Positions 1-23,052 of a DNA stretch of 32,000 nucleotides are shown here, one piece after another (position 1 is the first letter of the stretch; every line of letters begins with the position of its first letter). The DNA is from Desulfonatronum sp. SC1 (lineage in GTDB: Bacteria; Desulfobacterota; Desulfovibrionia; Desulfovibrionales; Desulfonatronaceae), in NCBI RefSeq assembly GCF_003046795.1, contig NZ_PZKN01000009.1, positions 69,980 through 101,979 of the forward strand, written 5' to 3'. Under the pieces are notes generated by a model. That model searched no databases and was not told the origin of the DNA. It was given only the letters and a program-made list of their open reading frames with translations. Made by a program: the position numbers and the translations under genes.

Positions 1-2689
<2,689 letters not shown>

Positions 2690-2690
2690 G

Positions 2691-2745
2691 AGTGACTAAG
2701 CGAGTGACCAACTCCGCCGAGCCTGGTCACCCGTGAAGTGACCAA
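2691..2745. promoter_or_regulatory. Cluster of GTGACYA motifs in the only real intergenic gap of the operon, including a perfect inverted repeat TGGTCAC-N7-GTGACCA (2724-2744)
   Basis: AGTGACTAA lies at 2691-2699, AGTGACCAA at 2703-2711 and AGTGACCAA at 2737-2745. The inverted copy TGGTCAC lies at 2724-2730. All fall in the 85-nt brxC-pglXI spacer. Confidence 0.35.
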
Positions 2746-2774
2746 GCTGAGAAACAAGACACCAGCCAAGGATT

Positions 2775-5597
2775 ATGAAGATGAAAGTAAACAGTTTGTT
2801 CGATTCGCTGCTAGAAGAGCCGCAGAAGCCCTCCGGCCCGGTGACGTGTCTCGGCATGACCTTTGAGAACGACGAGGCCCGCCGCGCCCACTTTACCGAG
2901 GAACTGCGCAAGAAGCTGCAGGACCCGGAGTTCCGCAAGATCGAAGGCTTTCCCATCGGCAGCGACGAGGACATCCTGAATCTAAGTGATCCGCCGTATT
3001 ACACCGCCTGCCCGAACCCGTGGATTGCTGACTTCATTGCCGAGTGGGAGGCGCAGAAGCCGGAACAGCCTGAAGGCTACCACTATCACCGTGAACCATT
3101 TGCGGCCGACGTGAGCGAGGGGAAAAACGACCCAATTTACAACGCGCACTCCTACCACACCAAGGTGCCGCACAAGGCCATCATGCGCTACATCCTCCAT
3201 TACACGCAGCCGGGAGATATCGTGTTCGACGGGTTCTGTGGGACCGGCATGACCGGTGTAGCGGCGCAGATGTGTGGTGACCGCGAAGTGGTCATGTCTC
3301 TTGGCTACCAGGTTAAGCCGGACGAGACCATTTTGCAGGAAGAGATCGATGAAGATGGCAAAAAGGTTTGGCGGCCGTTTTCAAAACTGGGCTCTCGTAG
3401 GGCTGTGCTGAACGACCTTTCGCCAGCGGCCACATTTATCGCCTACAACTACAATACGCCAGTCGATGTAGCAACATTTGATAAAGAGGTCAAACGCATT
3501 CTCAAGGAAGTCGAAAAAGAATGCGGCTGGATGTATGAGACCAAGCACTCGGATAATCGTATAGGAAATGTCAATTATACCATTTGGTCTGATGTGTTCT
3601 TGTGCGGTGAATGTTCGCAAGAGATTGTCCTTTGGGATGCTGCTGTTGACAAGGATTCTGGCGAGGTTTCATCAGAGTTTTTGTGTCCAGGATGCGGAGC
3701 TAGTTGGACCAAGAGGACAGCCGAACGAGCTTTCACAACGACTTTTGATCAATCATTGAATGAAACTATAAAGCAAGCCAAAAAGATTCCAGTCCTTATT
3801 AATTATTCGGTGTCAGGGAAAAGCTACACCAAGACTCCCGATGAATACGACTTCGGGCTTCTTAATAAAATTGATAGTAGTAATATCCCGACTTGGTTCC
3901 CTGTTGACCGATTGATGGATGGGAAGGAGACCCGTAGAAACGATCCTATTGGAATAACGCATTCCCATCATTTTTATACTAAGAGAAATTTATGGGTGTT
4001 TAGCTCATTTCTCTCCAAAACTATGGGCTCATTTTGGAAGAATCATTTCTGGGGCGCAGCCAAAGACTGCCAGTCTTATGCAACCAGAATGATCAAAATC
4101 AATATTAAGCGGCTATTATTCGGCGGCGGGCAGTTTATGGGATTCGTAGGTGGCACTCTATACGTGCCTAGCCTTCACGGAGAACAAAGCACGCTTAAAT
4201 CAATAGCGACAAAAACAAAAAAGGTTTCTTCTAATTACAGGAACCGAATGGACCAGTCTGGTGTAATGATAGGCTCGAGTTCGCTGAGTTCATCTGATAC
4301 CCAACCAGAAGAATCAATCGATTACATTTTTCTCGATCCTCCATTTGGCTCAAACATCAATTACTCTGAACTGAATTTTCTATGGGAGTCCTGGCTTAAG
4401 ATCTGGACAAATATTGAGCCAGAAGCCATTGAGAACGATGCTCATAGCAAAACGCTCGATGATTATCGCCATTTGATGACGAAATGCTTTCGAGAGGCTT
4501 ATCGTGTCCTGAAGCCTGGCCGTTGGATGACGATAGAGTTTTCAAATACAAACGCAGCGGTTTGGAACAGCATCCAGACTTCGCTTACCGAGGCCGGATT
4601 CATTGTTGCCAACGTATCCGCTCTTGACAAGAAGCAGGGAAGTTTCAAAGCCTACACTACCCCTACGGCAGTCAAACAAGACCTCGTCATCTCGGCATAC
4701 AAGCCCAATGGCGGTTTTGAAGAGCGTTTCCAAAAGGAAGCGCAAACTGAAGAAGGCGTGTGGGATTTTGTCCGAACCCACCTAAAGTATCTGCCAGTCA
4801 CCAAGCGCCAAGGCGCGTTGATGCTTTTTGTTCCTGAACGTGATCCGCGCATCCTGTTCGACCAGATGATCGCATTCTATGTCCGCAAGGGTTACCCCGT
4901 GCCGATCTCTAGCCAGGAATTTCAGATCGGGCTGGCACAACGTTTCATAGAGCGCGACGGCATGTACTTCCTACCGGACCAGGTGGCCGAATACGACCGC
5001 AAGATAATGACCTCCGGTGCCCCACAGCAGCTTTCGATGTTCGTCTCCGACGAGGCCTCGTCGATCCAGTGGCTCCGCCAGCTCATCAGAGAAAAACCGC
5101 AGACGTTCTCCGGCATCAATCCGCAGTTCATGCAGCAGCTCGGCGGCTGGAGCAAAAACGAGGCACAGCTCGACCTGCGCGAACTGCTGAACCAGAACTT
5201 CCTCTGCTACGACGGCAAAGGCCCGGTGCCCGAGCAGATCCACGCCTACCTCTCCACCAACTGGAAAGAGCTGCGTAACCTGCCCAAGGATAATCCGACC
5301 CTGGTCGCCAAGGCACGCGACCGCTGGTACGTGCCTGATCCCAACAAGGCGGGCGACCTGGAGAAGCTGCGCGAGAAGGCACTACTCAAGGAGTTCGAGG
5401 AATACAAAGAGGTCAAAAAGAAACTCAAGGTCTTCCGCCTGGAGGCTGTCCGCGCCGGATTCAAGAAAGCCTGGCAGGAGCGCGACTACGCCGTCATCGT
5501 CGCCGTGGCCTACAAGATTCCCAACAACGTTCTTGAAGAAGACCCCAAGCTGCTCATGTGGTACGACCAGGCAGTAACCAGAATGGGAGGCGAATAA
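2775..5597 (+). CDS. pglXI: BREX-associated DNA methyltransferase of the N4/N6 (PF01555-like) type, PglXI-like, 940 aa
   Basis: SAM-binding motif I is VFDGFCGTGMTG (aa 150-161). Catalytic motif IV is IFLDPPFGSNINY (DPPF = aa 521-524, nt 4335-4346). There is also an N-terminal SDPPYYTACPNPW box. A CGEC...CPGC zinc ribbon (aa 277-307) sits between motifs I and IV. Context is brxC upstream with helicase and pglZ downstream. Confidence 0.8.
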   Translation: MKMKVNSLFDSLLEEPQKPSGPVTCLGMTFENDEARRAHFTEELRKKLQDPEFRKIEGFPIGSDEDILNLSDPPYYTACPNPWIADFIAEWEAQKPEQPEGYHYHREPFAADVSEGKNDPIYNAHSYHTKVPHKAIMRYILHYTQPGDIVFDGFCGTGMTGVAAQMCGDREVVMSLGYQVKPDETILQEEIDEDGKKVWRPFSKLGSRRAVLNDLSPAATFIAYNYNTPVDVATFDKEVKRILKEVEKECGWMYETKHSDNRIGNVNYTIWSDVFLCGECSQEIVLWDAAVDKDSGEVSSEFLCPGCGASWTKRTAERAFTTTFDQSLNETIKQAKKIPVLINYSVSGKSYTKTPDEYDFGLLNKIDSSNIPTWFPVDRLMDGKETRRNDPIGITHSHHFYTKRNLWVFSSFLSKTMGSFWKNHFWGAAKDCQSYATRMIKINIKRLLFGGGQFMGFVGGTLYVPSLHGEQSTLKSIATKTKKVSSNYRNRMDQSGVMIGSSSLSSSDTQPEESIDYIFLDPPFGSNINYSELNFLWESWLKIWTNIEPEAIENDAHSKTLDDYRHLMTKCFREAYRVLKPGRWMTIEFSNTNAAVWNSIQTSLTEAGFIVANVSALDKKQGSFKAYTTPTAVKQDLVISAYKPNGGFEERFQKEAQTEEGVWDFVRTHLKYLPVTKRQGALMLFVPERDPRILFDQMIAFYVRKGYPVPISSQEFQIGLAQRFIERDGMYFLPDQVAEYDRKIMTSGAPQQLSMFVSDEASSIQWLRQLIREKPQTFSGINPQFMQQLGGWSKNEAQLDLRELLNQNFLCYDGKGPVPEQIHAYLSTNWKELRNLPKDNPTLVAKARDRWYVPDPNKAGDLEKLREKALLKEFEEYKEVKKKLKVFRLEAVRAGFKKAWQERDYAVIVAVAYKIPNNVLEEDPKLLMWYDQAVTRMGGE

Positions 5598-8245
5598 TGG
5601 CAGCATGTAATGAAAAATTTCCTCAGGGTAGCCGTTGGGTGCGTGCCGATTTTCATCTTCACACTGCGGCCGACAAGGAATTCTCCTTTGCGGGGAACCC
5701 CGACTTTTATTGCTCGGATTACATCCATGCGTTGAAGGATGCCGCCATTGAAGTCGGTCTGATTGCAAATCACAACAAGTTCGACTTTGATGAATTCAAG
5801 GCGTTACGAAAGTCCGCTCGAAAACAAGGCATTTTTCTTTTGCCTGGTGTCGAACTGTCCGTTAATGACGGAAGTAACGGCATTCACACTCTCGTCGTTT
5901 TCGGTGAAGAATGGTTGGCGAATGGGAAAAATTATATCAATCAATTTCTCAACGTTGCGTTCGAGGGGAAAATACCAGATCAATACGAAAATGAAAATGG
6001 TAGAAGTTCATTGGGCTTGCTAGAGACCATCAAAAAACTCGAAGGATATAACAAAGATTTTTTCCTGGTGTTTGCGCATGTCGAAGATAAAAGCGGATTA
6101 TGGAACGAATTGGACGGAGGCCGCCTGCAGGAATTAGGGAAATCAGATCTCTTTTGCCGGAGAGCCTTGGCATTTCAAAAAGTTCGAACCCATGTTATGC
6201 CAGACCGTAAATGCCGTGTAAAAGTTCAAGATTGGCTCTGTGAGACTTATCCTGCGGAAGTGGAAGGATCAGACCCCAAGTCAATTGATCAAATTGGAAA
6301 AGGGGAGAAGTGCTACCTGAAAATAGGCGATTTTACATTTGAGGCAGTCAAGTACGCACTTCTGGATCATAACCACCGCCTTGCATGCCAACCACTAATT
6401 TATAAACATTCACACATTCAAAGTGTCTCCTTTGATGGAGGCGTACTTGATGGAAAGACTATCAACCTTTCTCCTGAGTTAAATACACTCATTGGTATTC
6501 GGGGTAGTGGAAAATCTTCCATTGTGGAAGCGATCCGCTATGCCCTGGATATTCCGTTTGGCGAAAAAGCACTGGATACCGATTATAAGACCCGCCTCGT
6601 TGAACACGCCTTGGGAAGCGGAGGAAAAATTACGCTCAAGGCATTTGATCAGCGAGGGCAGCAATACGAAATCAGGCGTATCAGCCGGGAAAAGCCAGAT
6701 GTTTATGTTAAGGGCATTCTCCAACCGGGCATATCAATTCGGGAAACTGTTTTGCATAAACCCATTTATTTTGGACAGAAAGATCTCTCTTCGACAGGGG
6801 AAGGCTTTGAAAAAGATTTAGTAGAAAAACTGGTTGGCGAAAAGCTGGCTGGCATTCGTGCTCGCCTTTCTGACCAGAGCCAAAAGGTTACGGAGATTGT
6901 CAGTCGATTAAAGAAGCTTTCCAATGTTGAAGAGAAAAAGGCAGAATACAAAAGTAAAAAGCAGGACGCTGAATTCAGGCTTGAATTCTACAAAAAATAC
7001 GGAGTTGAGGAGAGGCTTCAAAAGCAGGTAGATTTTGATGCGGATTCGAGGAAATGCACTCAAGTGCTTACTTTCGTTCAAGGCTATCTGCGCGATCTGG
7101 AATCATTCATCAATCAATATGAGGATGATTTAAACAACCAGCGAATTTATACTTCAAAACAGAACAAAGATTTTTTTGATACCTTTTTTGCAGACTACGA
7201 TCAGCTCATTGACTCTTTTAATCGCACTAAGGATGCCCTTGCTTCTGGAAATCAAGTGCTAGCCGCACTTCGGACGAAATCAGAGGAATTCAGTAAGCTC
7301 AAGGAAGGGCTTAAGGAGGAATTTGCAGAAATCGAAAGAAAGCTGGCCGAACAATTGAAAGAGGCTGGAGTACAGGCCATTCGTCCGGAAGAATTCCGAA
7401 ACCTTAGGAAGACGGTGGATCAGGCCACGCAAATGCTGCAGGCTTTAGAAAAAGAAGAGGCAGTTCGCGGAAGTTTAAGAGGAGATTTTTTAAAGGATCT
7501 AGCTGCATTAAATGATCTTTGGCACGAAGAGTTTAAGACTATAAAGGGCGAATTGGATAAGGTCAACGAAGGTCATTCATCTCTGGCGATCGCTGCTGAG
7601 TTCAAAGGTGACAAAGTAGCCTTTATTAATTTTATGAAGGAAATTTTTCGTGGCAGCCGAATCCGGGAATCTACATTTCAGAATCTTTCCGATAGCTATG
7701 CCGACTTTGGAGCCATGTATAAGGATTGGAACTCTGTCAAAAGGGAGGTTGGAAACTCGGCAGATGTTTTTGGGCAATACTTCAGTAATAATCTTGAAGC
7801 GCTTCTGACTTTTCAAGTCCCCAATCGTTTCACTATCAAATATAGGGGCAAAGAACTGAAACACCATTCCTTGGGCCAGCGGGCATCTGCGTTGATCCTC
7901 TTTGTGCTAAGTCAACAGGAAAATGACGTTTTCCTTATTGATCAGCCAGAAGATGATTTGGATAATCAGACAATTTATGAAGATGTTATCAAGCTAATTC
8001 AAAGTTTAAAGCCGAAAACCCAGTTTGTCTTCGCTACTCATAACGCCAATTTTCCTGTGCTTGGTGATGCAGAGCAAGTTATCGCTTGCTCATATTCCGA
8101 TGATAAAATCCATGCTGTAAGTGGAAGCATCGACTGTCCAAAACTTCAACAGGAAATTGTTGACATTATGGAGGGCGGTGAAGAGGCATTCAGGCAGCGC
8201 AAAAGGAGATATGAAATATGGAAACCGCTGAGCTCCTTGAAATAA
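5597..8245 (+). CDS. Fusion protein: N-terminal PHP-family phosphoesterase domain + SMC/RecF/ABC-like ATPase with a long coiled coil (882 aa from ATG 5597)
   Basis: PHP-type metal-ligand pattern: RADFHLHT (HLH at nt 5654-5662), IANHN, PGVELS, IHTLVVF, VFAHVED. Walker A is LIGIRGSGKSSIVEAI (nt ~6494-6517). About 300 aa of E/K/L-rich coiled coil follow. The ABC signature-like motif is HSLGQRA, Walker B is VFLIDQPEDDLD (nt ~7931-7963), and the H-loop is FATHNAN. I prefer ATG 5597 over the track's 5558: GGGAGG lies 6 nt upstream, and it overlaps the pglXI stop as TAATG. Confidence 0.8.
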   Translation: MAACNEKFPQGSRWVRADFHLHTAADKEFSFAGNPDFYCSDYIHALKDAAIEVGLIANHNKFDFDEFKALRKSARKQGIFLLPGVELSVNDGSNGIHTLVVFGEEWLANGKNYINQFLNVAFEGKIPDQYENENGRSSLGLLETIKKLEGYNKDFFLVFAHVEDKSGLWNELDGGRLQELGKSDLFCRRALAFQKVRTHVMPDRKCRVKVQDWLCETYPAEVEGSDPKSIDQIGKGEKCYLKIGDFTFEAVKYALLDHNHRLACQPLIYKHSHIQSVSFDGGVLDGKTINLSPELNTLIGIRGSGKSSIVEAIRYALDIPFGEKALDTDYKTRLVEHALGSGGKITLKAFDQRGQQYEIRRISREKPDVYVKGILQPGISIRETVLHKPIYFGQKDLSSTGEGFEKDLVEKLVGEKLAGIRARLSDQSQKVTEIVSRLKKLSNVEEKKAEYKSKKQDAEFRLEFYKKYGVEERLQKQVDFDADSRKCTQVLTFVQGYLRDLESFINQYEDDLNNQRIYTSKQNKDFFDTFFADYDQLIDSFNRTKDALASGNQVLAALRTKSEEFSKLKEGLKEEFAEIERKLAEQLKEAGVQAIRPEEFRNLRKTVDQATQMLQALEKEEAVRGSLRGDFLKDLAALNDLWHEEFKTIKGELDKVNEGHSSLAIAAEFKGDKVAFINFMKEIFRGSRIRESTFQNLSDSYADFGAMYKDWNSVKREVGNSADVFGQYFSNNLEALLTFQVPNRFTIKYRGKELKHHSLGQRASALILFVLSQQENDVFLIDQPEDDLDNQTIYEDVIKLIQSLKPKTQFVFATHNANFPVLGDAEQVIACSYSDDKIHAVSGSIDCPKLQQEIVDIMEGGEEAFRQRKRRYEIWKPLSSLK

Positions 8246-9375
8246 TAAGTCGTGACGAGGACAGCAAGCATCAGTTTAAGGCCAACATTACGAATGAAAC
8301 GTCTTTGGCACAGGAGATGGTTGCCTTCAGTAACTCCGGAGGTGGTTCAATTTTCATCGGTGTGAGCAATGATGGCACATTCTCTGGATTGGAACGGAGC
8401 GACATGGGGCGACTTAACCAGTTGGTCTCAAATGCGGCATCGCAGCAAGTTAGGCCACCGATAAATCCATTGACGGAAAACATCCCTACTCCCAGCGGGC
8501 TTGTTATGCATGTGATTGTTCCGGATGGCATCAGCAAGCCCTATATGGATAAAAATGGAGTGATCTGGGTAAAGAGCGGGTCTGACAAGCGTAAAGCAAC
8601 GTCTCGGGAGGAAATTCAGCGGCTATATCAGAGTGCCAGCTTAATTCATGGTGATGAGATCCCTGTTGCGGGGCTGACAGTTGCCGACCTTGATGTTGAT
8701 TACTTCAGGGAGTTTTTCGAAAGAAATTTTAGAGAATCGCTCGAACAGCAGGAGCTGGCATTGCCGGAACTTCTCCACAATATGAATTTGATGAAAGACA
8801 GTTCTCTAAATATCGCCGGCGCACTGCTATTTGCAAAAAATCCAAGCTTCAAGTTGCCGGCATTTATCGTTAAAGCTATTGCTTTCCGGGGCAATGAAAT
8901 CCATGAGACGGAATATATGGATAGCCGAGATATTTCAGGAAAGTTGCCCGATATATTTCGACAAAGCATGAGTTTTGTGCTTGCCAACATTCATCATGTC
9001 CAAGGCGATCAAGATGTGAACGCTCCAGGTCAGCCCGAAATCCCGCCAATCGCGCTTGAAGAACTCATCGCCAATGCTCTCATTCACCGGGATTATTTTG
9101 TAACCGCACCTGTAAGAATTTTTATTTTTGACAACCGAGTAGAGATAATTAGCCCTGGGCACCTGCCCAATAACTTAACGATTGAAAATATAACAAGTGG
9201 AAACTCGAATATTCGGAACCCCATCCTAGCTTCCTTTGCGACAAAAATTCTGCCTTACCGAGGCCTAGGAAGCGGCATCATCCGTGCTTTAAAGGCCTAT
9301 CCTCATATTCATTTTGAAGATGATCGGGACGGGAATCTCTTCAAAGTGACTATTCAGCGAACAGCGAATGACTGA
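8218..9375 (+). CDS. AlbA_2 (PF04326, Schlafen-fold 'divergent AAA') + HATPase_c_4-like domain protein, COG2865-type, 385 aa
   Basis: The N-terminus reads ESKHQFKANI...LAQEMVAFSNSGGGSIFIGVSNDGTFSGL, typical of AlbA_2. The C-terminus reads LEELIANALIHRDYFVTAPVRIFIFDNRVEIISPGHLPNNLTIENI..GNSNIRNPILASF...RGLGSGIIRA, typical of the RecG-C-like/HATPase_c_4 module. A GGAG SD lies 9 nt upstream of ATG 8218. The start overlaps the preceding gene by 28 nt. Confidence 0.75.
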   Translation: METAELLEIISRDEDSKHQFKANITNETSLAQEMVAFSNSGGGSIFIGVSNDGTFSGLERSDMGRLNQLVSNAASQQVRPPINPLTENIPTPSGLVMHVIVPDGISKPYMDKNGVIWVKSGSDKRKATSREEIQRLYQSASLIHGDEIPVAGLTVADLDVDYFREFFERNFRESLEQQELALPELLHNMNLMKDSSLNIAGALLFAKNPSFKLPAFIVKAIAFRGNEIHETEYMDSRDISGKLPDIFRQSMSFVLANIHHVQGDQDVNAPGQPEIPPIALEELIANALIHRDYFVTAPVRIFIFDNRVEIISPGHLPNNLTIENITSGNSNIRNPILASFATKILPYRGLGSGIIRALKAYPHIHFEDDRDGNLFKVTIQRTAND

Positions 9376-12259
9376 CCACTGGCAATACAGCACCGTTCAT
9401 AACAGTGCCTGCAAGGTCATCGAAGAACAGATCCTGTGGGGGCAGACGGTGTGCCGTGTCTGGTTGCCGAACCAGGACGCAGTGGTGCGCGTGCCCCGCT
9501 CCGCTTTGCGGCCGCTGAGTGCCGACCTGCAGCCGGAGATCGAGGCCGGACGCATTGCCTATGTGGCCGCCGCAGCCAAGGTGGCCGAGGTGCTCGAGGG
9601 CTCCACCAGCGCCATCGAGGGTCATGTATTGCTGGCTCCCATGGAGTCCAACGTCATTCCTCTACCGCACCAGATCCACGCCTTGTCCCGGGCCATCTCC
9701 GGCGACCGCGTGCGATACTTGCTGGCTGACGAGGTGGGTCTCGGCAAGACCATCGAGGCCGGCTTGGTCATGCGTGAACTCAAGTTACGCGGGCTGGTGC
9801 GTCGAACCTTGGTTGTCTCCCCCAAAGGTATCGCCACCCAGTGGATGGCGGAAATGCAGACACACTTTAGCGAACAGTTCCGGCTCGTGCTGGGCGACGA
9901 TATCAGCACATTACAACGTCTTGCCCCAATGGCAAACCACCGAAGTTCAGCCTGGTCGATGTTTGATCAAGTCATCGTCTCCCTGGATTCGGTCAAACCC
10001 ATGGACAGACGTCGCGGTTGGACGGCAGAACGAGTTGCCGAATACAACCGCAGCCGATTCGAGGATCTGATTACTGCCGGTTGGGACCTAGTGATTGTGG
10101 ATGAAGCGCACCGGCTGGGTGGCAGCACCGACCAGGTTGCCCGCTACAAACTCGGCCAGGGATTGGCGGAAGCCGCGCCCTATTTGCTGCTGCTCTCGGC
10201 TACGCCTCACCAAGGCAAAACCGATGCCTTCCATCGCTTGATGAACCTGCTGGATGATGCCGCTTTTCCGGATATGGGCAGCGTCTCCCGCGAGCGGGTT
10301 GCCCCGTATGTCATCCGCACTGAAAAGCGCAAGGCCATCGATGCTGATGGGAAGCCGCTTTTTAAACCTCGACGCACGCTGATGGCTCCTGTGGTCTGGG
10401 AGAGCCGCCATCACCTGCAGCAGCTACTTTACGAAGCGGTTACCGACTACGTGCGCGAGGGCTACAACCAGGCCTTGCGCGAGAAGAAGCGCCACATCGG
10501 TTTTTTGATGATCCTGATGCAGCGCCTGGTGGTCTCCAGCACCCGGGCGATCCGCACCACTTTGGAACGTCGGCTTGGGGCGCTCAAGGATGGCGAGCAA
10601 CAAGCCAGTATGCGACTGGCGGAGCTTGAAAACATCGCGGAGGAATCGGACAGTTTCGACGAACTGTACGACATGGACGGCCAGGAATTGCTCGAAGAAT
10701 TGCTGAAGTCCCATGTGTCGGCCCTCCAGAACGAAAGGAGTCTGGTTGAGACCCTACTCGACGCGGCAGTCCGTTGTGAGCAGGCGGGGCCGGATGCCAA
10801 GGCTGAGGCGTTGATCGAACAGATCTACAAGTTGCAAGCCGAGGAAAACGAGCCGGATCTGAAGGTGCTGATTTTCACTGAGTTCGTGCCTACGCAGCAG
10901 ATGCTCAAGGAGTTTCTTGAAGCGCGGGGCATCTCGGTCGTCACCCTGAACGGTTCCATGGGTATGGAGGAGCGGATGCAGGCCCAGGATGCCTTCCGCA
11001 AGTCGCACCGCGTGCTGGTTTCCACCGACGCAGGCGGCGAAGGCCTGAACCTGCAGTTCGCCCACGTTATCATCAACTACGACATCCCGTGGAACCCGAT
11101 GCGGCTGGAACAGCGGATCGGACGCGTTGACCGAATCGGCCAGCCCAAAACGGTGCGGGCGATCAATTTTGTTTTTGAGGATTCGGTCGAGTTCCGGGTC
11201 CGCGAAGTGTTGGAGCAGAAGCTCTCCGTGATCTTCGAGGAGTTCGGCATCGATAAGACCGGCGACGTTCTCGACTCCGCCCAGGCCGGAGAATTGTTTG
11301 AGGATGTGTTCACCACGGCGATTCTCAATCCAGATGGTATCGAGACCTCCGTTGATCACACAGTAGCCCGTATTCGAGATGAGATTCAGCATGTGCGAGA
11401 GTCTTCGGCGATTTTCGGCATCTCTGAAGAACCGGATGTACAGGCCGCTGAGCGTCTACGCTCCCATCCGCTACCCCACTGGGTGGAGCGAATGACGGTT
11501 GGCTACCTCAACTCCCATGGCGGTGCTGTCACCCGCAAGCGTTCGTGGTGGGACCTGGGCTGGCCGGATGGCCAGCAGCATCGCAAATGCGTTTTTAGCG
11601 CCCGGGAAGCGGAGCGCCTGACTGATGCCACGCTGCTCAATCTTGAAAACAACCGGGTCCGTGGCCTTGCCCTGAATCTGCCACAGATGGCCGCCGGTCA
11701 GCCTTTGCCTTGCGTAAGCTTAAATGGACTGCCAGCCAACATCGCAGGTTTTTGGGGCCTGTTTGAAGTTCGCCTTCAGGCCGGGATGCACCAGAAGACG
11801 CAACTTCTGCGCATCCCCACTGTGCGGCGTGGCTATGTCAGCGTGTTTTTGAGCGAGGAAGGCAAACTGTTTCTGCCCACTGCCCGGCATATCTGGGATG
11901 CGCTGCAGACAGCGGAAGTTGAAATGCAAGACACCCTTGGACAGGATGAATCCATTACCGTCTATACGCGCTTGCAGGAAGCAGCAGAGCAGGCCGGGCA
12001 GGAGCTGTTCGACACATTGCAACAGGCTCACATTGATTCGGTGACACGGGAAGAGGAACGCGGCATGGTCGCCTTCACCTCCCGGCGCAAGGCTATCGAG
12101 CGAGTTGGGCTGCCTGAAGTACGCCAGTACCGTCTGGCCCGCTGTGATGCCGAGGAAGCTGAGTGGCGGCATGAACTGCTATCAGCGCGGCAGATCGTAC
12201 CGGAAATCAGGTCGTTGCTGATGTTACGCGTCGTCAAGGCACCCCAATGCAGTTTATAA
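9368..12259 (+). CDS. brxHII: SNF2/RapA-like DEAH-box helicase, BrxHII-like, 963 aa
   Basis: Helicase motifs: I LADEVGLGKT, II VIVDEAHRLGG, III LLLSATPHQG, V VSTDAGGEGLNLQ, VI WNPMRLEQRIGRVDRIGQ. It sits between the BREX methyltransferase and pglZ. The start overlaps the upstream stop (ATGACTGA, 9368-9375). Confidence 0.8.
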   Translation: MTDHWQYSTVHNSACKVIEEQILWGQTVCRVWLPNQDAVVRVPRSALRPLSADLQPEIEAGRIAYVAAAAKVAEVLEGSTSAIEGHVLLAPMESNVIPLPHQIHALSRAISGDRVRYLLADEVGLGKTIEAGLVMRELKLRGLVRRTLVVSPKGIATQWMAEMQTHFSEQFRLVLGDDISTLQRLAPMANHRSSAWSMFDQVIVSLDSVKPMDRRRGWTAERVAEYNRSRFEDLITAGWDLVIVDEAHRLGGSTDQVARYKLGQGLAEAAPYLLLLSATPHQGKTDAFHRLMNLLDDAAFPDMGSVSRERVAPYVIRTEKRKAIDADGKPLFKPRRTLMAPVVWESRHHLQQLLYEAVTDYVREGYNQALREKKRHIGFLMILMQRLVVSSTRAIRTTLERRLGALKDGEQQASMRLAELENIAEESDSFDELYDMDGQELLEELLKSHVSALQNERSLVETLLDAAVRCEQAGPDAKAEALIEQIYKLQAEENEPDLKVLIFTEFVPTQQMLKEFLEARGISVVTLNGSMGMEERMQAQDAFRKSHRVLVSTDAGGEGLNLQFAHVIINYDIPWNPMRLEQRIGRVDRIGQPKTVRAINFVFEDSVEFRVREVLEQKLSVIFEEFGIDKTGDVLDSAQAGELFEDVFTTAILNPDGIETSVDHTVARIRDEIQHVRESSAIFGISEEPDVQAAERLRSHPLPHWVERMTVGYLNSHGGAVTRKRSWWDLGWPDGQQHRKCVFSAREAERLTDATLLNLENNRVRGLALNLPQMAAGQPLPCVSLNGLPANIAGFWGLFEVRLQAGMHQKTQLLRIPTVRRGYVSVFLSEEGKLFLPTARHIWDALQTAEVEMQDTLGQDESITVYTRLQEAAEQAGQELFDTLQQAHIDSVTREEERGMVAFTSRRKAIERVGLPEVRQYRLARCDAEEAEWRHELLSARQIVPEIRSLLMLRVVKAPQCSL

Positions 12260-15200
12260 CTAATGGCCCCGATATCCCTGATGCCCTCTTGCAGGCGCAC
12301 GAAGATGGCCGTGTGGTTTTCTTCTGCGGTGCGGGCATTTCCTACCCTGCGCGCCTGCCGGGTTTCGCGGGTCTGATCGACAAGCTCTACACGGTATTGG
12401 CCGTCACACCCAACGCGGTGCAGCAGGCAGCGATCAAGGCCGGACAGTTCGATACCGCCATCGGCCTGCTGGAAGCGGATATCATCGGCGGCCGCAAAGA
12501 GGCGATTGTTCGCAAAGCGGTCGCAGACATCCTGAAGCCCGACCTCAACGCCCCGAACGCCTCGGCAACCCACGAGGCGCTGCTAATGTTGGGCAAGTGC
12601 CGTAACGGCCACACCCGCCTCATCACCACCAACTTCGATCGCCTGTTCGAGGAAGTGATCGCCGCGAAGTCGCTGCCCGTCGAGAGCTTCAAGGCCCCAC
12701 TGTTGCCTGTACCGAAGAACCGTTGGAATGGCCTGGTGTATCTGCACGGCCTGCTCGGTGCGGCACCGACCGCGAGCGAGCTGGACCGGCTGGTCATCTC
12801 CAGCGGCGATTTCGGCCTAGCTTATCTCACCGAGCGTTGGGCGGCGCGTTTCGTCAGCGAGCTGTTCCGCAGCTGCACCGTCTGCTTCGTCGGTTACAGC
12901 ATCAACGACCCGGTATTGCGCTACATGATGGATGCCCTGGCCGCCGACCGCCTGCTCGGCGAGTCGCCACCGGAGATGTTCGCGTTCGGCAGCTTTTCCA
13001 AGCGCAAGGAAGAGGAACGGGCCAACGAGTGGCGGGCCAAGAATGTCACGCCCATCCTCTACCGCGAGCACAACCGGCACGCCTATCTGCACAAGACACT
13101 GCGCGCATGGGCCGAGACCTACCGCGACGGCGTGCGCGGTAAAGAGCGCATCGTGGTCGAATGTGCCATAGCGCGACCGCTGGCGAGCACTAAACAGGAC
13201 TACTTCATCCCCCGAATGCTGTGGGCGCTCAGCGATCCGGACGGCCTGCCCGCCAAGCGCTTTGCCGAGCTTGACCCCGTGCCGTCGCTGGACTGGTTGG
13301 CACCTTTGAGCGAGGACCGCTACGGCCACGCTGATCTGAATCGTTTCGGTGTTCCGCCGAAGACACCTGCCGATGACAAGCTCACCTTCAGCCTGACTCG
13401 CAGACCCTCGCAGTATCCACTCGCGCCGTCGATGTGTGTCGTTGATACTGGTGCGCGCGGCAGCCACTGGGACAAGGTGATGGGGCATTTGGCACATTGG
13501 ATGATCCGCCACCTCGATGATCCGGCCCTGCTGCTGTGGCTTGTCAAGCGCGGCGGACAACTGCACGACGACCTGATCCGGTTGATAGAACACCGCCTCG
13601 ACGAGTTGGCCCAGCTTGAACGCGAGGGCAACACCGCCAAATTGGCGCGTATTCGTGAAAACGCACCCAACGCGATCCCCGGTCCGCTGATGCGGACCCT
13701 GTGGCGACTGCTGCTGACCGGGCGCGTGAAATCGTGGCTGCGCGACTACAACCTTTATCGCTGGCGCGACCGCTTTAAACGTGATGGTCTCACCGCCACC
13801 TTGCGTCTGGAGCTGCGCGAGATGTTGACACCGCGCGTGTCTCTGCGCGAACCCTTCAGTTGGCCGGATGATGACCGGGAAAGCCCAGAGCCGTCGCAGA
13901 TTAAAGATCTGGTGGAATGGGAGATCGTGCTTTCGACGGATCACGTCCATTCCAGAATGCGGGATCTGCCCAGGGATGAACGCTGGACCGCCGCATTGCC
14001 GGAGCTGCTATCCGATTTCAGCACGTTGTTGCGCGATGCACTCGATCTGATGCGTGAGCTCGGCAGTGCAGAAGCCCGGAGCGACCTATCCTATATACAT
14101 CAACCCTCGATCAGTGGACACCCTCAGAACCGTGACTTCCACGACTGGACGGCCTTGATCGAACTGACCCGGGATGCGTGGCTGGCCACAGCGGCCCAAT
14201 CCCCCGAGCGCGCGGAACTCATGGCGGAATCGTGGTCGCACACGCCCTATCCGCTGTTCCGGCGTCTCGCCCTCTTTGCCGCCGCACAGAGCAATGTAAT
14301 ACCCCTCCGGCGTGCACTCGATTGGCTGCTGGCGGCCGATCACTGGTGGCTGTGGTCGGTGGAAACCGAACGGGAAACCATGCGCCTGCTCGTGGCCCTG
14401 GCACCGCAACTCGATGAGGTGATGCTGCGGGCACTGGAACAGGCCGTGCTCGACGGCCCTCCCCATGATATGTTCAAGGATAACATCGAGCCCGAGCGCT
14501 GGACACGAATTGTTGACCGCACAATCTGGCTCCGGCTGGCAAAGATCGTCGAGGCTGGTGCGGTCTTGGGTATAGTTGCCAAGGACCGGCTGGACAGGCT
14601 CTCAGCTCAGTATCCTGAGTGGCAACTCGCGGTGGATCAGAGCGATGAGTTTCCTTACTGGATGGAGAGTGGCTGGGTCGGTGACAGGGACCCATGGCGG
14701 GATTTCGTATCAATACCTCGCAGCAGGCGCGGCCTATTGAACTACTTGATCGCAAACACGGTGTTGCCCGAGTCGAAACAAGACGACTGGCGAGAAAGGT
14801 GCAAGGATAGCTTTCAAAGCACGGCGTACGCCTTGTGTCATTTGGCAGGACAGAATGTTTGGCCGTATGATCGCTGGCGGGATGCGTTACAGGCGTGGTC
14901 AGAAGAGGAACTACAAAACCGCTCTTGGCGGTACATGGCCCAGGTCCTTGTAAATGCGCCCGATGAAATGCTGCAAACGCTCGCCCATGGTGTCAGCTGG
15001 TGGCTGCAGGCCATTGCAAAGACCTTCGAGGGACACGAAACGCACTTCTTCGGGTTAGCTCGCCGCATCCTGGCGCTGGATCATCAGGATGTCGTCGATA
15101 CCGATGACCCCGTCGGGCGAGCCATCAACCATCCCGTGGGTCAGGTAACGGAGGCACTGCTGCGCTGGTGGTATCGACGCTCACTGGAGGATGGGCAATG

Positions 15201-16035
15201 TTTGCCCGCAGAGCTCAAGCCCACGTTCACTGAGCTTTGCGATACCGGGATCGACAAGTTTCGGCATGGCCGTGTTTTGCTGGCGGCGCATGTCATCACG
15301 TTGTTCCGCGTGGACCGGGATTGGGCGACGCACCACCTGTTGCCCCTTTTTGACTGGCAACGATCGGAAGCCGAAGCGCGCGCGGTGTGGGAAGGTTTCC
15401 TGTGGTCACCGCGCCTGTACTGTCCTCTGATGGAAATGCTTAAGCCGGCCTTCCTCGATACCGCGCGCCATTTTGCGGCATTGGGCAAGCACAACGGCCA
15501 TTACGCATCGTTACTGACATTTGCTGCCCTCGACCCAGGTGACACCTTCACCACGGCTGAGCTGGCGGCCGCCACCCGCTCACTCCCGCCGGACGGTTTG
15601 CACGATGCAGCACAAGCATTGGTGAGAGCGCTTGAGGGCGCGGGCGATCAACGTGCCGACTACTGGACCAACCGGGTTGCCCCGTACCTTCACGCCATCT
15701 GGCCTAAAACGCGAGACAACATTTCACCCGACATCGCCGAAAGTCTTGGCCACCTGTGCATAGCGGCACAAGATGCGTTCCCCGAAGCATTGACGCTGCT
15801 CCGTGTCTGGCTGCAACCGATTGAACACCCGCACTATATCGTGCATCTTCTGGACGAATCTGGACTGTGCAGACAGTTCCCTGCGGAGGCATTGCTGCTG
15901 CTAGATGCAGTAATTGCCGAACAGCAGTGGGCGCTCATGGAGTTGGGTCAATGTTTGGATGAGATTGTGCAGACCGCGTCACATTTTGCGCAAGATGCCC
16001 GTTACTTGAAGCTCCGAGAGTATTTGCGCAGATGA
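12247..16035 (+). CDS. Large SIR2-like (SIR2_2/DSR-type) domain protein: N-terminal ~300-aa sirtuin-like domain + ~950-aa C-terminal region of unknown function (1262 aa)
   Basis: SIR2_2 hallmarks: VVFFCGAGISYPARLPGFAGL (Rossmann G-rich loop), LITTNFDRLFE (Asn129, nt 12631-12633), LVYLHGLL (His167, nt 12745-12747), VISSGDFGLAY, VCFVGYSINDPVLRYMMD. The rest is W/L/R-rich, probably helical repeats. It overlaps brxHII by 13 nt and pglZ by 4 nt (ATGA). Confidence 0.75.
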   Translation: MQFITNGPDIPDALLQAHEDGRVVFFCGAGISYPARLPGFAGLIDKLYTVLAVTPNAVQQAAIKAGQFDTAIGLLEADIIGGRKEAIVRKAVADILKPDLNAPNASATHEALLMLGKCRNGHTRLITTNFDRLFEEVIAAKSLPVESFKAPLLPVPKNRWNGLVYLHGLLGAAPTASELDRLVISSGDFGLAYLTERWAARFVSELFRSCTVCFVGYSINDPVLRYMMDALAADRLLGESPPEMFAFGSFSKRKEEERANEWRAKNVTPILYREHNRHAYLHKTLRAWAETYRDGVRGKERIVVECAIARPLASTKQDYFIPRMLWALSDPDGLPAKRFAELDPVPSLDWLAPLSEDRYGHADLNRFGVPPKTPADDKLTFSLTRRPSQYPLAPSMCVVDTGARGSHWDKVMGHLAHWMIRHLDDPALLLWLVKRGGQLHDDLIRLIEHRLDELAQLEREGNTAKLARIRENAPNAIPGPLMRTLWRLLLTGRVKSWLRDYNLYRWRDRFKRDGLTATLRLELREMLTPRVSLREPFSWPDDDRESPEPSQIKDLVEWEIVLSTDHVHSRMRDLPRDERWTAALPELLSDFSTLLRDALDLMRELGSAEARSDLSYIHQPSISGHPQNRDFHDWTALIELTRDAWLATAAQSPERAELMAESWSHTPYPLFRRLALFAAAQSNVIPLRRALDWLLAADHWWLWSVETERETMRLLVALAPQLDEVMLRALEQAVLDGPPHDMFKDNIEPERWTRIVDRTIWLRLAKIVEAGAVLGIVAKDRLDRLSAQYPEWQLAVDQSDEFPYWMESGWVGDRDPWRDFVSIPRSRRGLLNYLIANTVLPESKQDDWRERCKDSFQSTAYALCHLAGQNVWPYDRWRDALQAWSEEELQNRSWRYMAQVLVNAPDEMLQTLAHGVSWWLQAIAKTFEGHETHFFGLARRILALDHQDVVDTDDPVGRAINHPVGQVTEALLRWWYRRSLEDGQCLPAELKPTFTELCDTGIDKFRHGRVLLAAHVITLFRVDRDWATHHLLPLFDWQRSEAEARAVWEGFLWSPRLYCPLMEMLKPAFLDTARHFAALGKHNGHYASLLTFAALDPGDTFTTAELAAATRSLPPDGLHDAAQALVRALEGAGDQRADYWTNRVAPYLHAIWPKTRDNISPDIAESLGHLCIAAQDAFPEALTLLRVWLQPIEHPHYIVHLLDESGLCRQFPAEALLLLDAVIAEQQWALMELGQCLDEIVQTASHFAQDARYLKLREYLRR

Positions 16036-18062: not shown

Positions 18063-18814
18063 TGGGCAAAAGACACGAAGCCATTGGCATCAAGCAGGCG
18101 ATCCGTTTCGAGTGGATGCAGAAAGTAGCCAATCTTTTGCTGGCTGGACTCGATGCAAAAACCATCCGCCAGGAGCTGCATGAGTTCCTCACGGACAGAA
18201 AAGGCAACGGCACTGAAGGTGAACGAAGCGATCAGACCCGGACATTTGTCGTCAACAACCTGATGAAGATCTGGGTCTCTCCTGACCCCGAACTAATTTC
18301 ATTCCGGGATACCTCGCTGGCGTTTCTGCAGGCAAACCCGTCCATGGCCCTGGCGGTTCACTGGGGGCTGATCTCAGCGGTCTATCCGTTCTGGTTCTCT
18401 GTAGCCCGTCAGACCGGCCGCCTGTTGTCCTTGCAGGATCAGGTGACCCAGACGCAGATCATCAACCGCCTCAAGGAACAGTACGGCGACCGGCAAACCG
18501 TGAGTCGCTATGCGAGATTTGTCATCCGCTCCTTTGTCGCCTGGGGAGCCCTGAAGGATTCCGAGGCCAAAGGCTGCTATGAGAAAGCCGCCCTGGTGAG
18601 TATTGCCGAACCAAAACTGGCCATCCTGATGTTCGAGTCCGCACTCCTCGCCACCCCGGAGGGCAAGGGCGCATTGGGGCTGCTCCTGAACAACCCGGCA
18701 TTCTTCCCATTCCAGCTCCCCGTGATGACCGGTGACTTTGTATCCCAACGCAGCGACCGGATCGATGTGGTTCGCTATGGTTTGGATGATGAATTGTTGA
18801 AATTGAAGGCATAG
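18062..18814 (+). CDS. Terminal BREX operon gene, BrxA-position protein (~250 aa); assigned by position only
   Basis: Clean 250-aa ORF. Its ATG at 18062 overlaps the pglZ stop (TGATG). In type 3 BREX, brxA follows pglZ. I cannot recognise DUF1819 motifs by eye. Confidence 0.45.
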   Translation: MGKRHEAIGIKQAIRFEWMQKVANLLLAGLDAKTIRQELHEFLTDRKGNGTEGERSDQTRTFVVNNLMKIWVSPDPELISFRDTSLAFLQANPSMALAVHWGLISAVYPFWFSVARQTGRLLSLQDQVTQTQIINRLKEQYGDRQTVSRYARFVIRSFVAWGALKDSEAKGCYEKAALVSIAEPKLAILMFESALLATPEGKGALGLLLNNPAFFPFQLPVMTGDFVSQRSDRIDVVRYGLDDELLKLKA

Positions 18815-19813: not shown

Positions 19814-20635
19814 TCAAGGAGTATGAGGTGCTCCTCGCATCTTTCCCCAAAGCCGGGACAGAAAGAATCCGCCAGCCGCCACCATGACGATGGCCGCACC
19901 AGCGGTCAGATTCAGGGAGTAGGCCAGAAGCAATCCGCTTACGCAGAACACGGCGCAGAGTAGCACGGACCAAGCCATCATGATTCCCAGTGAACGCGCA
20001 ACCCTTTCCGCCATCACGGCTGGAATGGTCAACAGCGCGATGACCAGAATCAAGCCCACGGCCTGGATGACCGTTACCACGGTCAACGCGGCCAGAGCCA
20101 AAAGGCTGAAATACAGGCCGCGCACCGGGACGCCCATAACCCGTGCATGCTCCTCGTCGTATGACATGGCCAACAGGTCGTGATAGAAAAGCCTCACCCA
20201 GCCCAGCACCACCAGATTCAACGCGGCCATCAGCCATAGGCTTGTGCTGGGCACCAACAGAATGCTGCCAAACAGGTAGCTCATCAAGTCCACGTTGTAC
20301 CCAGGGGTCATGTCCACCAGGATGATCCCCGCGGCCATGCCCACGGCCCAGATCACGCCAATGGTGGCGTCGCTGCGATGCTTGGCCCCCAAACTGATCC
20401 CGCCCATGACCAAGGAAGCCAGCAAAGCGAACAGCGCGGCGCCGAGATACGGCGACGCGCCCAGATAGATCGCCGCGCCCACCCCGCCATAGGAAGCGTG
20501 GGCGACTCCGCCGGACAGAAAGACAAGACGGTTGACCACAACCAAGGCCCCCATCACCCCGCAACAAACGCTGATCAGCAAACAGGCCGCCAAGGCGTTG
20601 CGCATGAATTCGTACTGGAGAAAATCCGGGATCAT
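19814..20635 (-). CDS. znuB: Zinc/metal ABC transporter permease (ZnuB-like), 273 aa
   Basis: Polytopic hydrophobic protein (LLISVCCGVMGALVVVNRLVFLSGGVAHASYGGVG...). It is the last gene of an SBP-ATPase-permease operon and overlaps znuC by 4 nt. Confidence 0.8.
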   Translation of the reverse strand: MIPDFLQYEFMRNALAACLLISVCCGVMGALVVVNRLVFLSGGVAHASYGGVGAAIYLGASPYLGAALFALLASLVMGGISLGAKHRSDATIGVIWAVGMAAGIILVDMTPGYNVDLMSYLFGSILLVPSTSLWLMAALNLVVLGWVRLFYHDLLAMSYDEEHARVMGVPVRGLYFSLLALAALTVVTVIQAVGLILVIALLTIPAVMAERVARSLGIMMAWSVLLCAVFCVSGLLLAYSLNLTAGAAIVMVAAGGFFLSRLWGKMRGAPHTP

Positions 20636-21396: not shown

Positions 21397-21408
21397 GGGA
21401 CAACTCCG

Positions 21409-22395: not shown

Positions 22396-22447
22396 ATCCT
22401 CCTGGTTACCTTACCCGATGCGGCACGCCTCTCGTCCTCAGCCTTTC

Positions 22448-23029: not shown

Positions 23030-23052
23030 TTCGTTTCTCCAGGAGCCGACAG

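Follow-up and report, generated by a model that had tools for sequence, protein, structure and literature searches.

The stretch of DNA analysed here, referred to below as the window, comprises 32,000 nucleotides (nt) of contig NZ_PZKN01000009.1 from Desulfonatronum sp. SC1 and carries a type 3 BREX operon with a nested two-gene cassette, trlF-trlG, which is the subject of this work. All coordinates are positions in the window, and all the operon genes are on the + strand. According to the list of open reading frames (ORFs) and their translations, the BREX type 3 genes, trlF (gene 1), trlG (gene 2) and a gene for Dsr1 form a single, tightly packed + strand operon (62-18814), in which the BREX type 3 and Dsr1 genes were identified by PADLOC, Pfam and NCBIfam with very high scores. 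The cassette is flanked on the left by the gene for the PglXI (BrxXI) methyltransferase (2775-5597; PADLOC PglXI 1520 bits; Pfam N6_N4_Mtase) and on the right by that for the SNF2-type helicase BrxHII (9368-12259; PADLOC BrxHI/BrxHII 1624.6 bits; Pfam SNF2-rel_dom and Helicase_C), the two borders of what is described below as a cargo slot. The protein encoded by trlF (5597-8245) has 882 amino acids (aa) and joins a PHP-like phosphoesterase domain to an SMC/Rad50-like ABC ATPase, and that encoded by trlG (8218-9375) has 385 aa and combines a Schlafen/AlbA_2 domain with a GHKL (HATPase_c_4) module.

Both ORFs and the three junctions of the cassette were read directly in the sequence, exactly as claimed in an earlier note made from the letters alone (the original prediction). 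At the left junction (5585-5599), a GGGAGG (5585-5590) ends seven bases 5' of the trlF ATG (5597-5599), which has one base in common with the PglXI stop codon TAA (5595-5597), giving TAATG at 5595-5599. At the trlF/trlG junction (8204-8245), an AGGAGA (8204-8209) precedes the trlG ATG at 8218, and the two genes overlap out of frame by 28 nt (8218-8245). At the right junction, ATGACTGA (9368-9375), the brxHII ATG overlaps the trlG stop codon. The ATG at 5597 was taken as the real start of trlF, in agreement with the 882-aa NCBI protein (100% identity and coverage) and with the homologues, which align from residue 1; the mechanical ORF start GTG at 5558 was rejected.

The GC content of the cassette is 0.440 compared with 0.577 for the rest of the operon, and GC at third codon positions (GC3) is 0.42 in trlF and 0.47 in trlG compared with 0.67-0.83 in the flanking BREX genes. 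When GC was recomputed for the single 60-nt lines on which the predicted contrast was based, values of 0.35, 0.30 and 0.38 in the cassette and 0.58, 0.57 and 0.65 in the flanks were reproduced, so the drop is real, but its size over the whole cassette (44.0% vs 57.7%) had been overstated. GC, GC3 and the junction reads together bear out a foreign origin combined with seamless coupling. A promoter and terminator scan of 2500-12500 gave nothing better than shuffled sequences, and neither tRNA genes nor an integrase were found in the window; there is therefore no sign of an internal promoter or of an integration site.

Domain architecture of TrlF and TrlG

The gene 1 protein is 100% identical to the NCBI entry 'TrlF family AAA-like ATPase [Desulfonatronum sp. 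SC1]' and scored 579.7 bits against the curated NCBIfam model NF045780 (TrlF_fam_ATP), above the equivalog cut-off of 350, with residues 11-873 covering model positions 2-944 of 944. The next-best families were Ppl and Spaf_1101. Against Ppl, TrlF reached 166.7 bits in NCBIfam, under the cut-off of 1000, and 131.6 bits in PADLOC, the NCBIfam alignment being collinear (residues 11-625 to model positions 1-600). Since the TrlF model was passed and the Ppl score lies far under its cut-off, TrlF was assigned to a sister family of Ppl rather than to Ppl itself. The pair was not recognised as a named defence system in the original prediction; it is in fact already named, after the temperature restriction locus (TRL) trlR-trlF-trlG of Photorhabdus laumondii (Hapeshi et al. 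2020, bioRxiv 10.1101/2020.06.02.129163 / PMC7554251), and its nearest validated relative is Ppl. Judged by sequence, the window cassette is a member of this TrlF/TrlG family minus trlR, and a defence role is proposed for it. Assignment of gene 1 to PARIS, Lamassu, Gabija, Septu or MADS was rejected, the matches being confined to the P-loop or the signature motif.

The PHP-like metal-phosphoesterase domain of TrlF was placed at 5627-6391 (aa ~11-265), based on hhalign comparisons and on residues invariant in 73 homologues. It contains the PHP-type motifs HLH (aa 20-22) and NH (aa 58-59), and H20, H22, D26, H59, E86, H97, H161, E163, D226 and K228 are invariant. In the alignment with E. coli YcdX (hhalign probability 65.6%, E 5.8e-5) the HxH, H and E motifs were matched, and in that with RNase AM the same motifs and a fourth His, with the final PHP His replaced in TrlF (SD226-P-K228). 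The invariant residues, the YcdX and RNase AM alignments and the collinear Ppl match thus support a PHP-type N-terminal domain, as predicted. The assignment is weaker than had been assumed: Pfam does not detect the domain in TrlF, and relatives reached only E 0.02-0.07 and 13.9-15.6 bits with PF02811 (cut-off 26.4).

The N-terminal half of the ATPase head (6410-6805) carries Walker A GSGKS (aa 303-307, nt 6503-6517) and is matched by Pfam SMC_N, AAA_23 and AAA_29 at aa 282-320. It is followed by a predicted antiparallel coiled-coil arm (6806-7570, aa 404-658), for which the AlphaFold2 (AF2) secondary structure gave helices at 404-440, 444-467, 471-517, 524-589 and 597-658. The C-terminal half of the head (7571-8242; Pfam AAA_21, aa 678-818) contains the signature SLGQRA (aa 758-763), Walker B LIDQPEDDLD (aa 780-789) and the H-loop ATHN (aa 813-816). 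All four ATPase motifs, including Walker A (G303-S307), are present as predicted and invariant in the 73 homologues. The predicted coiled coil was also found, but with a length of about 255 aa instead of about 300 aa. The AF2 model of TrlF had a mean predicted local distance difference test (pLDDT) score of 65.6, with the ATPase and the coiled coil resolved; since the first 50 residues of the PHP-like region were unresolved, Foldseek was informative on the SMC part alone. It matched the heads of JetC, SMC, MukB, Rad50, RecN and RecF (E 1e-11 to 1e-6, best 3.6e-11), in line with the original assignment of gene 1 to SMC/Rad50-like ATPases with a coiled coil. The four motifs, the coiled-coil insertion and the fold similarity place TrlF among the SMC/Rad50/RecF-type ABC ATPases. 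A CxxC zinc hook was not found in the arm, where C487 is the sole Cys, and no Mre11/SbcD-like gene was detected nearby by Pfam or PADLOC. Searches of TrlF, TrlG and the TrlF N-domain with hidden Markov models (HMMs) against PDB sequences returned one SMC P-loop, 3LMM ('uncharacterized protein') and chance ZinT matches. Relatives of TrlF were also seen in records labelled as phage: the Listeria 'phage' records OR846775.1 (10761-13355) and OR848124.1, of about 20 kb and unannotated, contain a full-length relative with 40% identity, and Yersinia phage vB_YenM_42.18 and a Vibrio phage element contain Ppl-like 'chromosome partition' proteins that are 26-30% identical.

In TrlG, Pfam identified SLFN_AlbA_2 (PF04326) at aa 14-127 (6.5e-20, 72.3 bits, cut-off 25.3) and HATPase_c_4 (PF13749) at aa 297-361 (2.8e-14), with no helix-turn-helix (HTH) domain detected by Pfam and 24 residues left after the last domain. 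The predicted Schlafen plus HATPase_c_4 architecture without an HTH was hence confirmed. The Schlafen/AlbA_2 domain (8257-8598) carries the motif E14-D15-x3-Q19-x-K21 and a Schlafen (SAFAN) box VAFSN (aa 35-39), of which A36, F37 and N39 are invariant in the 73 homologues. The GHKL/Bergerat ATP-binding domain (9025-9300) has an N-box, E282-x3-N286-A-x-x-H290-R-D292, and glycine boxes (G314, G349, G351, G353), likewise invariant. The counterparts of E282 and N286 in the structure of a Schlafen-containing prokaryotic Argonaute (SLFN-pAgo), E314 and N318, bind Mg-ATP, and in PADLOC the N-terminal SLFN+ATPase region of a pAgo model was matched by TrlG. The combination of SLFN and GHKL ATPase, already characterised elsewhere as a module, is called 'Schlatpase', and TrlG, a stand-alone protein of this type, has both Pfam domains in one chain together with the GHKL Mg-ATP residues that define it. 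Two BREX-3 operons that carry TrlFG contain, elsewhere in the operon, an extra Schlafen + ATPase paralogue of 413-419 aa with canonical Ex4ExK (L002, 11632-12891; L023, 5310-6551), the L023 copy lying between BrxC and PglXI.

Distribution of the pair and the slot between PglXI and BrxHII

A scan of one genome per species found TrlF relatives in at least 534 genomes, and the best 80 loci, with 55-87% identity, were fetched. These 80 come from Desulfobacterota, Gamma- and Betaproteobacteria, Nitrospirota, Planctomycetota, Verrucomicrobiota, Spirochaetota, Clostridia, Acidobacteriota and others. TrlG is encoded directly downstream of TrlF in about 75 of them, most outside BREX, so the neighbourhood comparison suggested with the original prediction confirmed that the two genes co-occur in other contexts. 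Where no adjacent trlG was seen, the contig ended, the copy was truncated (L051), or TrlF stood alone (L069 and L070). All 75 loci in which it could be measured show an overlap of 13-31 nt between the trlF stop and the trlG start, and the pairwise identities of the co-inherited TrlF and TrlG are correlated (r = 0.88). In the two TrlF-only loci, TrlF is encoded directly between HsdS and HsdR (722-3337 in L069, 10001-12619 in L070) without any TrlG, and therefore can stand as a single gene, like Ppl.

The contexts of the 80 loci were labelled by a Pfam census of the neighbours and by phmmer with seed proteins. Nineteen TrlFG loci lie inside type I restriction-modification (R-M) operons, arranged as HsdR-TrlF-TrlG-HsdS-[AAA_13-like]-HsdM or HsdM-HsdS-TrlF-TrlG-HsdR-[YgjP]; 11-12 are in BREX-3 at the exact position found in the window; six adjoin N6_N4 methyltransferase and/or ResIII genes, and five are near MmeI-like enzymes. 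Methylation-based contexts thus make up about half of the 80 loci, many of which are on short contigs. The remaining loci are stand-alone, often 3' of a gene for a 60-90 aa HTH protein resembling trlR. Distances to host genes on the same strand are mostly -8 to +20 nt, and coupling to the host operon is therefore the rule rather than a peculiarity of the window. In the cassettes of the order HsdR-TrlF-TrlG-HsdS-X-HsdM (L038, L041, L043, L051, L059 and L083, the last being plasmid pNDM-1_Dok01), the X position is taken by a conserved protein of 371-372 aa, named 'AAA family ATPase' (14044-15159 in L083). Pfam AAA_13 is matched by it in the C-terminal part only, and its gene, another embedded one, sits tightly between hsdS and hsdM, overlapping by 4 nt.

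Several observations indicate mobility. Full-length TrlF was found on 229 plasmids, including the IncC plasmid pNDM-1_Dok01 and IncC NDM-1 plasmids of Klebsiella and E. coli. On pNDM-1_Dok01 the locus adjoins Tn7-like transposon genes and is annotated in the order HTH, HsdR, TrlF, 'RNA-binding domain-containing protein', HsdS, AAA ATPase, HsdM; neighbouring genes overlap by 4 nt from hsdR to hsdM. Of 5426 complete E. coli genomes, 38 have this variant, in every case flanked by hsdR and hsdS; one E. coli or IncC copy spans 167125-170912 of NC_018994.1. The GC content of TrlFG is more than 3 points under that of its flanks in 34 of 63 loci and above it in only 4. Furthermore, the similarity patterns of the BREX backbone and TrlFG are incongruent: L023 has a close backbone (77-89%) and a distant TrlFG (60%), whereas L003 and L005 have distant backbones (39-64%) and a close TrlFG (74-84%).

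Type 3 BREX has a core of six genes: BrxF, BrxC, PglXI, BrxHII, PglZ and BrxA. The original prediction assumed that such operons normally lead directly from the methyltransferase to the helicase. This assumption failed in 80 metagenomic loci (L085-L164) with a BrxHII 73-92% identical to that of the window: in none of the 60 with both PglXI and BrxHII do these genes adjoin, and the gap measures 1066-7490 nt. By comparison, the spacing of BrxHII and PglZ is 9 nt in most related loci, the few larger gaps including copies of Dsr1 (L096 and L124). Clustering of the slot genes gave about 30 protein clusters, which occur in 24 arrangements. As identified by PADLOC and Pfam, the cargo includes a genuine Ppl standing alone (518.2 bits, L085), a Ppl-like protein with a 418-aa Schlatpase of canonical motif, IetA-IetS, AriA/AriB-like (PARIS-like) pairs, an OLD/AriA-like ATPase, GajA with GajB (Gabija), AbiU, NsnB/HEC-03-like ATPases with an unknown partner, HEC-01A, PDC-S19 and a weak PD-T7-3-like match. 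Several slot genes had no match in PADLOC or Pfam, e.g. L089 4941-6467 (509 aa), L086 7946-8992 (349 aa) and L142 8288-8974 (229 aa). TrlFG proper is present in two of the 60 loci (L132 and L156), with a remnant in a third (L150). Since the slot content varies over the 60 loci and most TrlFG copies are outside BREX, TrlFG is not part of the BREX-3 core, and the possibility that the pair is specific to BREX was rejected.

The borders of the slot are sharp. In 12 relatives with differing cargo, nucleotide homology is conserved up to the PglXI stop codon, and the conserved 3' end of PglXI (…ATGGGAGGCGAATAA) contains the GGGAGG, a Shine-Dalgarno sequence for any following cargo. Homology restarts in the relatives at TGGCAATACAGCACCGTT, which is codon 5 of BrxHII, and the first four brxHII codons therefore move with the cargo. 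The 'seamless' junctions of the cassette are hence a property of the slot. These results show a clade of type 3 BREX in which a second, exchangeable defence system is always present at a single exact junction; the literature searched contained no description of this junction as an exchange slot that is always filled. The sample also revealed another lineage of the pairing, in which a Ppl-like PHP-ATPase of 921-924 aa is followed by a Schlatpase of 418-419 aa that is 25-27% identical to TrlG (L100, L133, L134 and L160, in which the two genes overlap, and also L143 and L163). The Schlatpases of L100, L133, L134, L160 and L143 have a canonical Ex4ExK motif (GEDSSLELK in the first four, GEDNSFEYK in L143).

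Besides the slot, the window operon encodes BrxC (62-2689, with the N-terminus outside the window), a full-length Dsr1 sirtuin (12247-16035; NCBIfam 1985.6 bits, cut-off 1400), PglZ (16032-18062) and BrxA (18059-18814). Dsr1 is a second nested system, between BrxHII and PglZ, with a normal GC content (0.60), overlapping BrxHII by 13 nt and PglZ by ATGA. In the related BREX-3 loci it was seen only in L096 (83% identity), where the cargo of the first slot is different, and in L124 (55%). The whole-gene GC3 of PglXI is only 0.62 because of a low-GC centre at 3495-4544 (aa ~241-590), with GC 0.43 and GC3 0.45 compared with GC3 0.71-0.72 elsewhere in the gene. The identity of PglXI to its relatives is mosaic, with 90-96% in C-terminal segments (contigs with the gene end only) and 50-79% for the best segment of complete genes; this, together with the low-GC central third, fits a swapped, nested target-recognition domain. 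Next to the BREX island, core genes occupy the - strand (19814-31692), namely those for a metal ABC transporter (ABC-3 permease and ABC_tran ATPase), an AIR-synthase-related protein and a LysR regulator, followed by rpoA, rpsD, map, secY and rpsE. A 369-aa ORF at 21343-22452 (+), without any match in Pfam, overlaps an antisense ORF of 328 aa.

Function of the pair

The reading that we favour, as somewhat more probable than the others taken together, is that the cassette is a horizontally acquired copy of TrlF-TrlG, carried as exchangeable defence cargo in the PglXI/BrxHII slot of BREX-3 and acting as an independent second-layer anti-phage system. The pair is conserved, co-inherited and mobile, has intact catalytic motifs in TrlF and in the TrlG ATP-binding site, and behaves as slot cargo. 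From this we infer an abortive-type system rather than a BREX subunit. Autonomous defence is the most likely function because the equivalent cargo in the slot consists of defence systems, because the relative Ppl is anti-phage (it was reported in a screen to protect E. coli against phage), and because bacterial Schlafen proteins are abortive-infection effectors. The suggestion in the original prediction of an autonomous module nested in BREX is accordingly upheld, as the pair is outside BREX in most loci and the slot holds other defence systems.

The only phenotype on record for TrlFG comes from Photorhabdus, in which growth is arrested above ~35 °C and transcription is induced upon temperature up-shift (PMC7554251). 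In that study every mutation found in spontaneous temperature-tolerant mutants was in trlG and none in the 2.3-fold larger trlF, and deletion of the entire trl operon also relieved the growth arrest (PMC7554251). That only trlG was mutated suggests that TrlG is the toxic effector and TrlF a sensor or restrainer. A mechanism can be proposed on this basis. The cassette, with no detectable promoter of its own, would be translated by coupling to the BREX genes. TrlF would probably dimerise via its SMC/Rad50-like ATPase heads, and its PHP domain might be, as in the distant relative Ppl, a nucleotide-gated nuclease or a sensor directed at the ends of foreign DNA. Growth arrest would be caused by TrlG, oligomerising on ATP, as Schlafen + GHKL modules are described as ATP-oligomerised tRNase effectors. 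TrlF would be dispensable for the toxicity of TrlG and may sense or restrain it, as AriA does AriB.

Several points weigh against this reading. The authors of the Photorhabdus study did not interpret temperature restriction as immunity (PMC7554251), and literature searches on TrlF, TrlG, COG2865 and Schlafen + PHP found no phage-defence test of TrlFG. The PHP-like domain had no match to Pfam PHP (PF02811) even at E <= 10, and AF2 had low confidence in it at aa 1-50 and 218-268. The mechanism of Ppl may not transfer to TrlF, because the Ppl cut-off was not reached and identity is low (to Ppl-like proteins, 23-26% in the PHP half and ~40% in the final 120 aa). Q19 of TrlG is invariant in 73 of 73 sequences, giving Ex4QxK and not the family-wide catalytic motif Ex4(E/D)xK, and in CbCash the analogous change D22N abolished tRNA cleavage. 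Since the second catalytic acid is an invariant glutamine, canonical nuclease activity of TrlG cannot be assumed, and it is uncertain from the sequence whether it cuts tRNA like canonical Schlafens. The AF2 model of TrlG from a 16-sequence alignment was unusable (pLDDT 45.9). Finally, the constant nesting and translational coupling could mean that the pair depends on its host system.

This last point leads to the alternative that TrlFG is a dependent guard, wired to the host restriction system like PrrC or PARIS and silent while BREX or type I R-M works, which we regard as possible but unlikely; it is equally with some doubt that we would name as the trigger a phage anti-restriction protein (Ocr, ArdA or Stp-like) that disables the host and sets off growth arrest and/or DNA degradation. 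TrlFG adjoins the gene of an SF2 translocase (HsdR, BrxHII or ResIII) in about 30 of 80 loci, and the order HsdM-HsdS-TrlF-TrlG-HsdR puts it in the position that PrrC occupies in EcoprrI. The junctions of mostly -8 to +20 nt tie its expression to the host operon, PARIS-like AriA/AriB pairs and OLD-family ATPases share the BREX slot in relatives, and embedded Schlafen genes were termed 'backup suicidal effectors' in a BREX survey. Against such a wiring, the mechanistic differences between the host systems make a specific protein-protein link less likely, many loci stand alone and have a small HTH regulator of their own, and TRL toxicity in Photorhabdus occurred without an R-M partner; the stand-alone copies indicate that dependence on a restriction system is not obligatory. 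Tentatively, and with rather low confidence, TrlFG may be regarded as a distinct and widespread 'restriction-linked' abortive system that serves whichever methylation-based host it resides in (type I R-M, BREX-3 or others). TrlF might then monitor DNA ends, nucleotide pools or anti-restriction proteins and control TrlG, and TrlG, given its invariant Ex4QxK motif, would not work through canonical Schlafen tRNA cleavage but in another way. The PglXI/BrxHII and hsdR/hsdS junctions would be dedicated docking slots for interchangeable back-up modules, in which the host gene gives the ribosome-binding site and a shared start codon.

The remaining explanations carry much less weight with us than those above. 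The original prediction had also considered an accessory of this BREX variant, with TrlF and TrlG as extra subunits, for example the missing nuclease and sensor. The recurrence of the position in 11-12 of 80 TrlF loci, the translational coupling at both ends of the cassette and the lack of an agreed nuclease effector in BREX speak for it; it is nevertheless highly improbable in view of the type I R-M and stand-alone contexts of most TrlFG copies, the 24 arrangements and about 30 protein clusters found in the slot of relatives with 73-92% identical BrxHII, the foreign GC content of the cassette and the incongruence of TrlFG and backbone similarity. It is also improbable that the pair has no role in immunity, in which case it would either regulate growth in response to stress or temperature, as has been proposed for Photorhabdus, or be a DNA-repair nuclease of the SbcCD kind. 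The sole experimental phenotype, temperature-induced in its transcription, and the resemblance of an SMC/Rad50-like ATPase plus phosphoesterase to repair complexes are in favour of this. However, horizontal transfer has given TrlFG a patchy distribution (38 of 5426 E. coli genomes, plasmids, Tn7-like transposon genes alongside), it lies inside R-M and BREX operons where the equivalent cargo consists of defence systems, the closest characterised relative (Ppl) is anti-phage, and heat-triggered toxicity would be a plausible by-product of an abortive-infection effector. An addiction module, in which a TrlG toxin and a TrlF restrainer stabilise a mobile element or the R-M/BREX operon, would agree with the exclusive occurrence of Photorhabdus mutations in trlG, since loss of trlF would be harmful while trlG is intact, and with the presence of the pair on conjugative plasmids and beside Tn7-like transposon genes. 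We hold it to be very doubtful, as antitoxins are not typically large, enzyme-rich proteins in which ATPase and PHP sites are conserved, and TrlF occurs without TrlG in L069 and L070; moreover, addiction overlaps with abortive-infection defence rather than excluding it.

If the defence-cargo reading is true, the temperature restriction of Photorhabdus would be auto-immunity, a two-gene relative would be added to the Ppl family, and TrlG would offer a natural example of a Schlafen domain whose catalytic motif is changed. With at least 534 species-representative genomes and 229 plasmids carrying it, TrlFG is common and yet is missing as a system from defence-system catalogues. The slot analysis supports layered, back-up immunity, and the slot contents offer a simple route to new defence systems. 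The native E. coli copies in 38 complete genomes make the pair experimentally tractable.

Comparison with known systems

The ATPase head and coiled-coil fold of TrlF are shared, according to Foldseek, with Wadjet JetC/JetD, Lamassu LmuB/LmuA and SbcCD/Mre11-Rad50. In contrast to these SMC-nuclease machines, the putative nuclease of TrlF is PHP-type and fused in cis, and kleisin/KITE, LmuA/LmuC, Mre11/SbcD and the zinc hook are absent; TrlF reached only 43.9 bits with LmuB, and PADLOC found no LmuA or LmuC homologue in the cassette. The original view of gene 1 as a single-chain analogue of a nuclease and SMC-like ATPase pair holds as an architectural parallel, but the fusion is not without precedent because Ppl already has it.

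PrrC and RloC are anticodon nucleases embedded in type I R-M loci as guest genes between hsdS and hsdR, with which they are co-expressed; PrrC occupies this place in the EcoprrI (type Ic) locus, and RloC consists of a Rad50-like coiled-coil ATPase and an RNase. Both are single proteins with a different nuclease domain. No sequence relationship of TrlFG to PrrC or RloC was detected, though no test aimed at one was made. PARIS, short for 'phage anti-restriction induced system' (AriA ABC ATPase and AriB TOPRIM tRNase), likewise has two genes, one for a sensor of the ABC-ATPase type and one for a separate effector, and PARIS-like pairs are found in the slot. TrlFG differs in having no TOPRIM domain and in the PHP domain and long coiled coil of TrlF, whose matches to AriA are partial (33.4 bits, residues 754-827, signature/Walker B region only).

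TrlG resembles the Schlatpases, i.e. the SLFN-pAgo N-terminus, the pSlfn-HisKinase class and the BREX/R-M-associated clusters, in its SLFN_AlbA_2 + HATPase_c_4 architecture, SAFAN-like box and GHKL N-box. It differs from them in the Ex4QxK motif, in having neither HTH nor Argonaute, and in its obligate upstream PHP-SMC partner, which is absent from those surveys. Schlafen-ATPase proteins found within BREX and R-M loci were previously listed as back-up effectors; the BREX survey lists embedded Schlafen, HEPN and TOPRIM genes in this sense, and neither 'PHP' nor 'Ppl' is mentioned in its text.

Ppl (PDLC02208, NF042955), described in the literature as PHP + ATPase, is collinear with TrlF over the N-terminal PHP-type domain, the ABC/SMC-like ATPase and the coiled coil (~880-930 aa), and a genuine Ppl holds the PglXI/BrxHII slot in sister BREX-3 loci. 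With blastp, TrlF aligned to Ppl-like cargo in its N-terminal as well as its C-terminal part. A passage in a review presents Ppl as a 3'-5' single-stranded DNA exonuclease that is inhibited when NTPs are bound to the PHP and NTPase domains, whereas depletion of nucleotides plus 3'-OH ends activates it. Ppl is a single-gene system, whereas TrlF is nearly always accompanied by TrlG; some Ppl-like genes in the slot do have a partner, but this is a distinct Schlatpase with the canonical motif. Membership of the pair in Lamassu, PARIS, Gabija, Ppl or the BREX core was rejected by the respective membership criteria.

The closest counterpart is the TRL operon of Photorhabdus. The window lacks trlR, with no trlR-like small ORF or own promoter above chance found 5' of trlF in the ORF list and the scan, and its pair is coupled into a BREX operon instead of forming a stand-alone three-gene operon. 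Otherwise both proteins, the gene order and the gene overlap (28 nt in the window) are the same. It has been reported that Photorhabdus TrlG has AlbA_2 at 14-128 and HATPase_c_4 at 298-365, with the adjacent TrlF annotated as 'histidinol phosphatase' (PMC7554251), and these domain positions are nearly identical to those in the window. Furthermore, Allopseudospirillum japonicum (Pseudospirillum japonicum in the paper), which is listed among the closest TrlG homologues of Photorhabdus (PMC7554251), is one of the 80 loci compared here (L072), with TrlF 57% and TrlG 63% identical to the proteins of the window.

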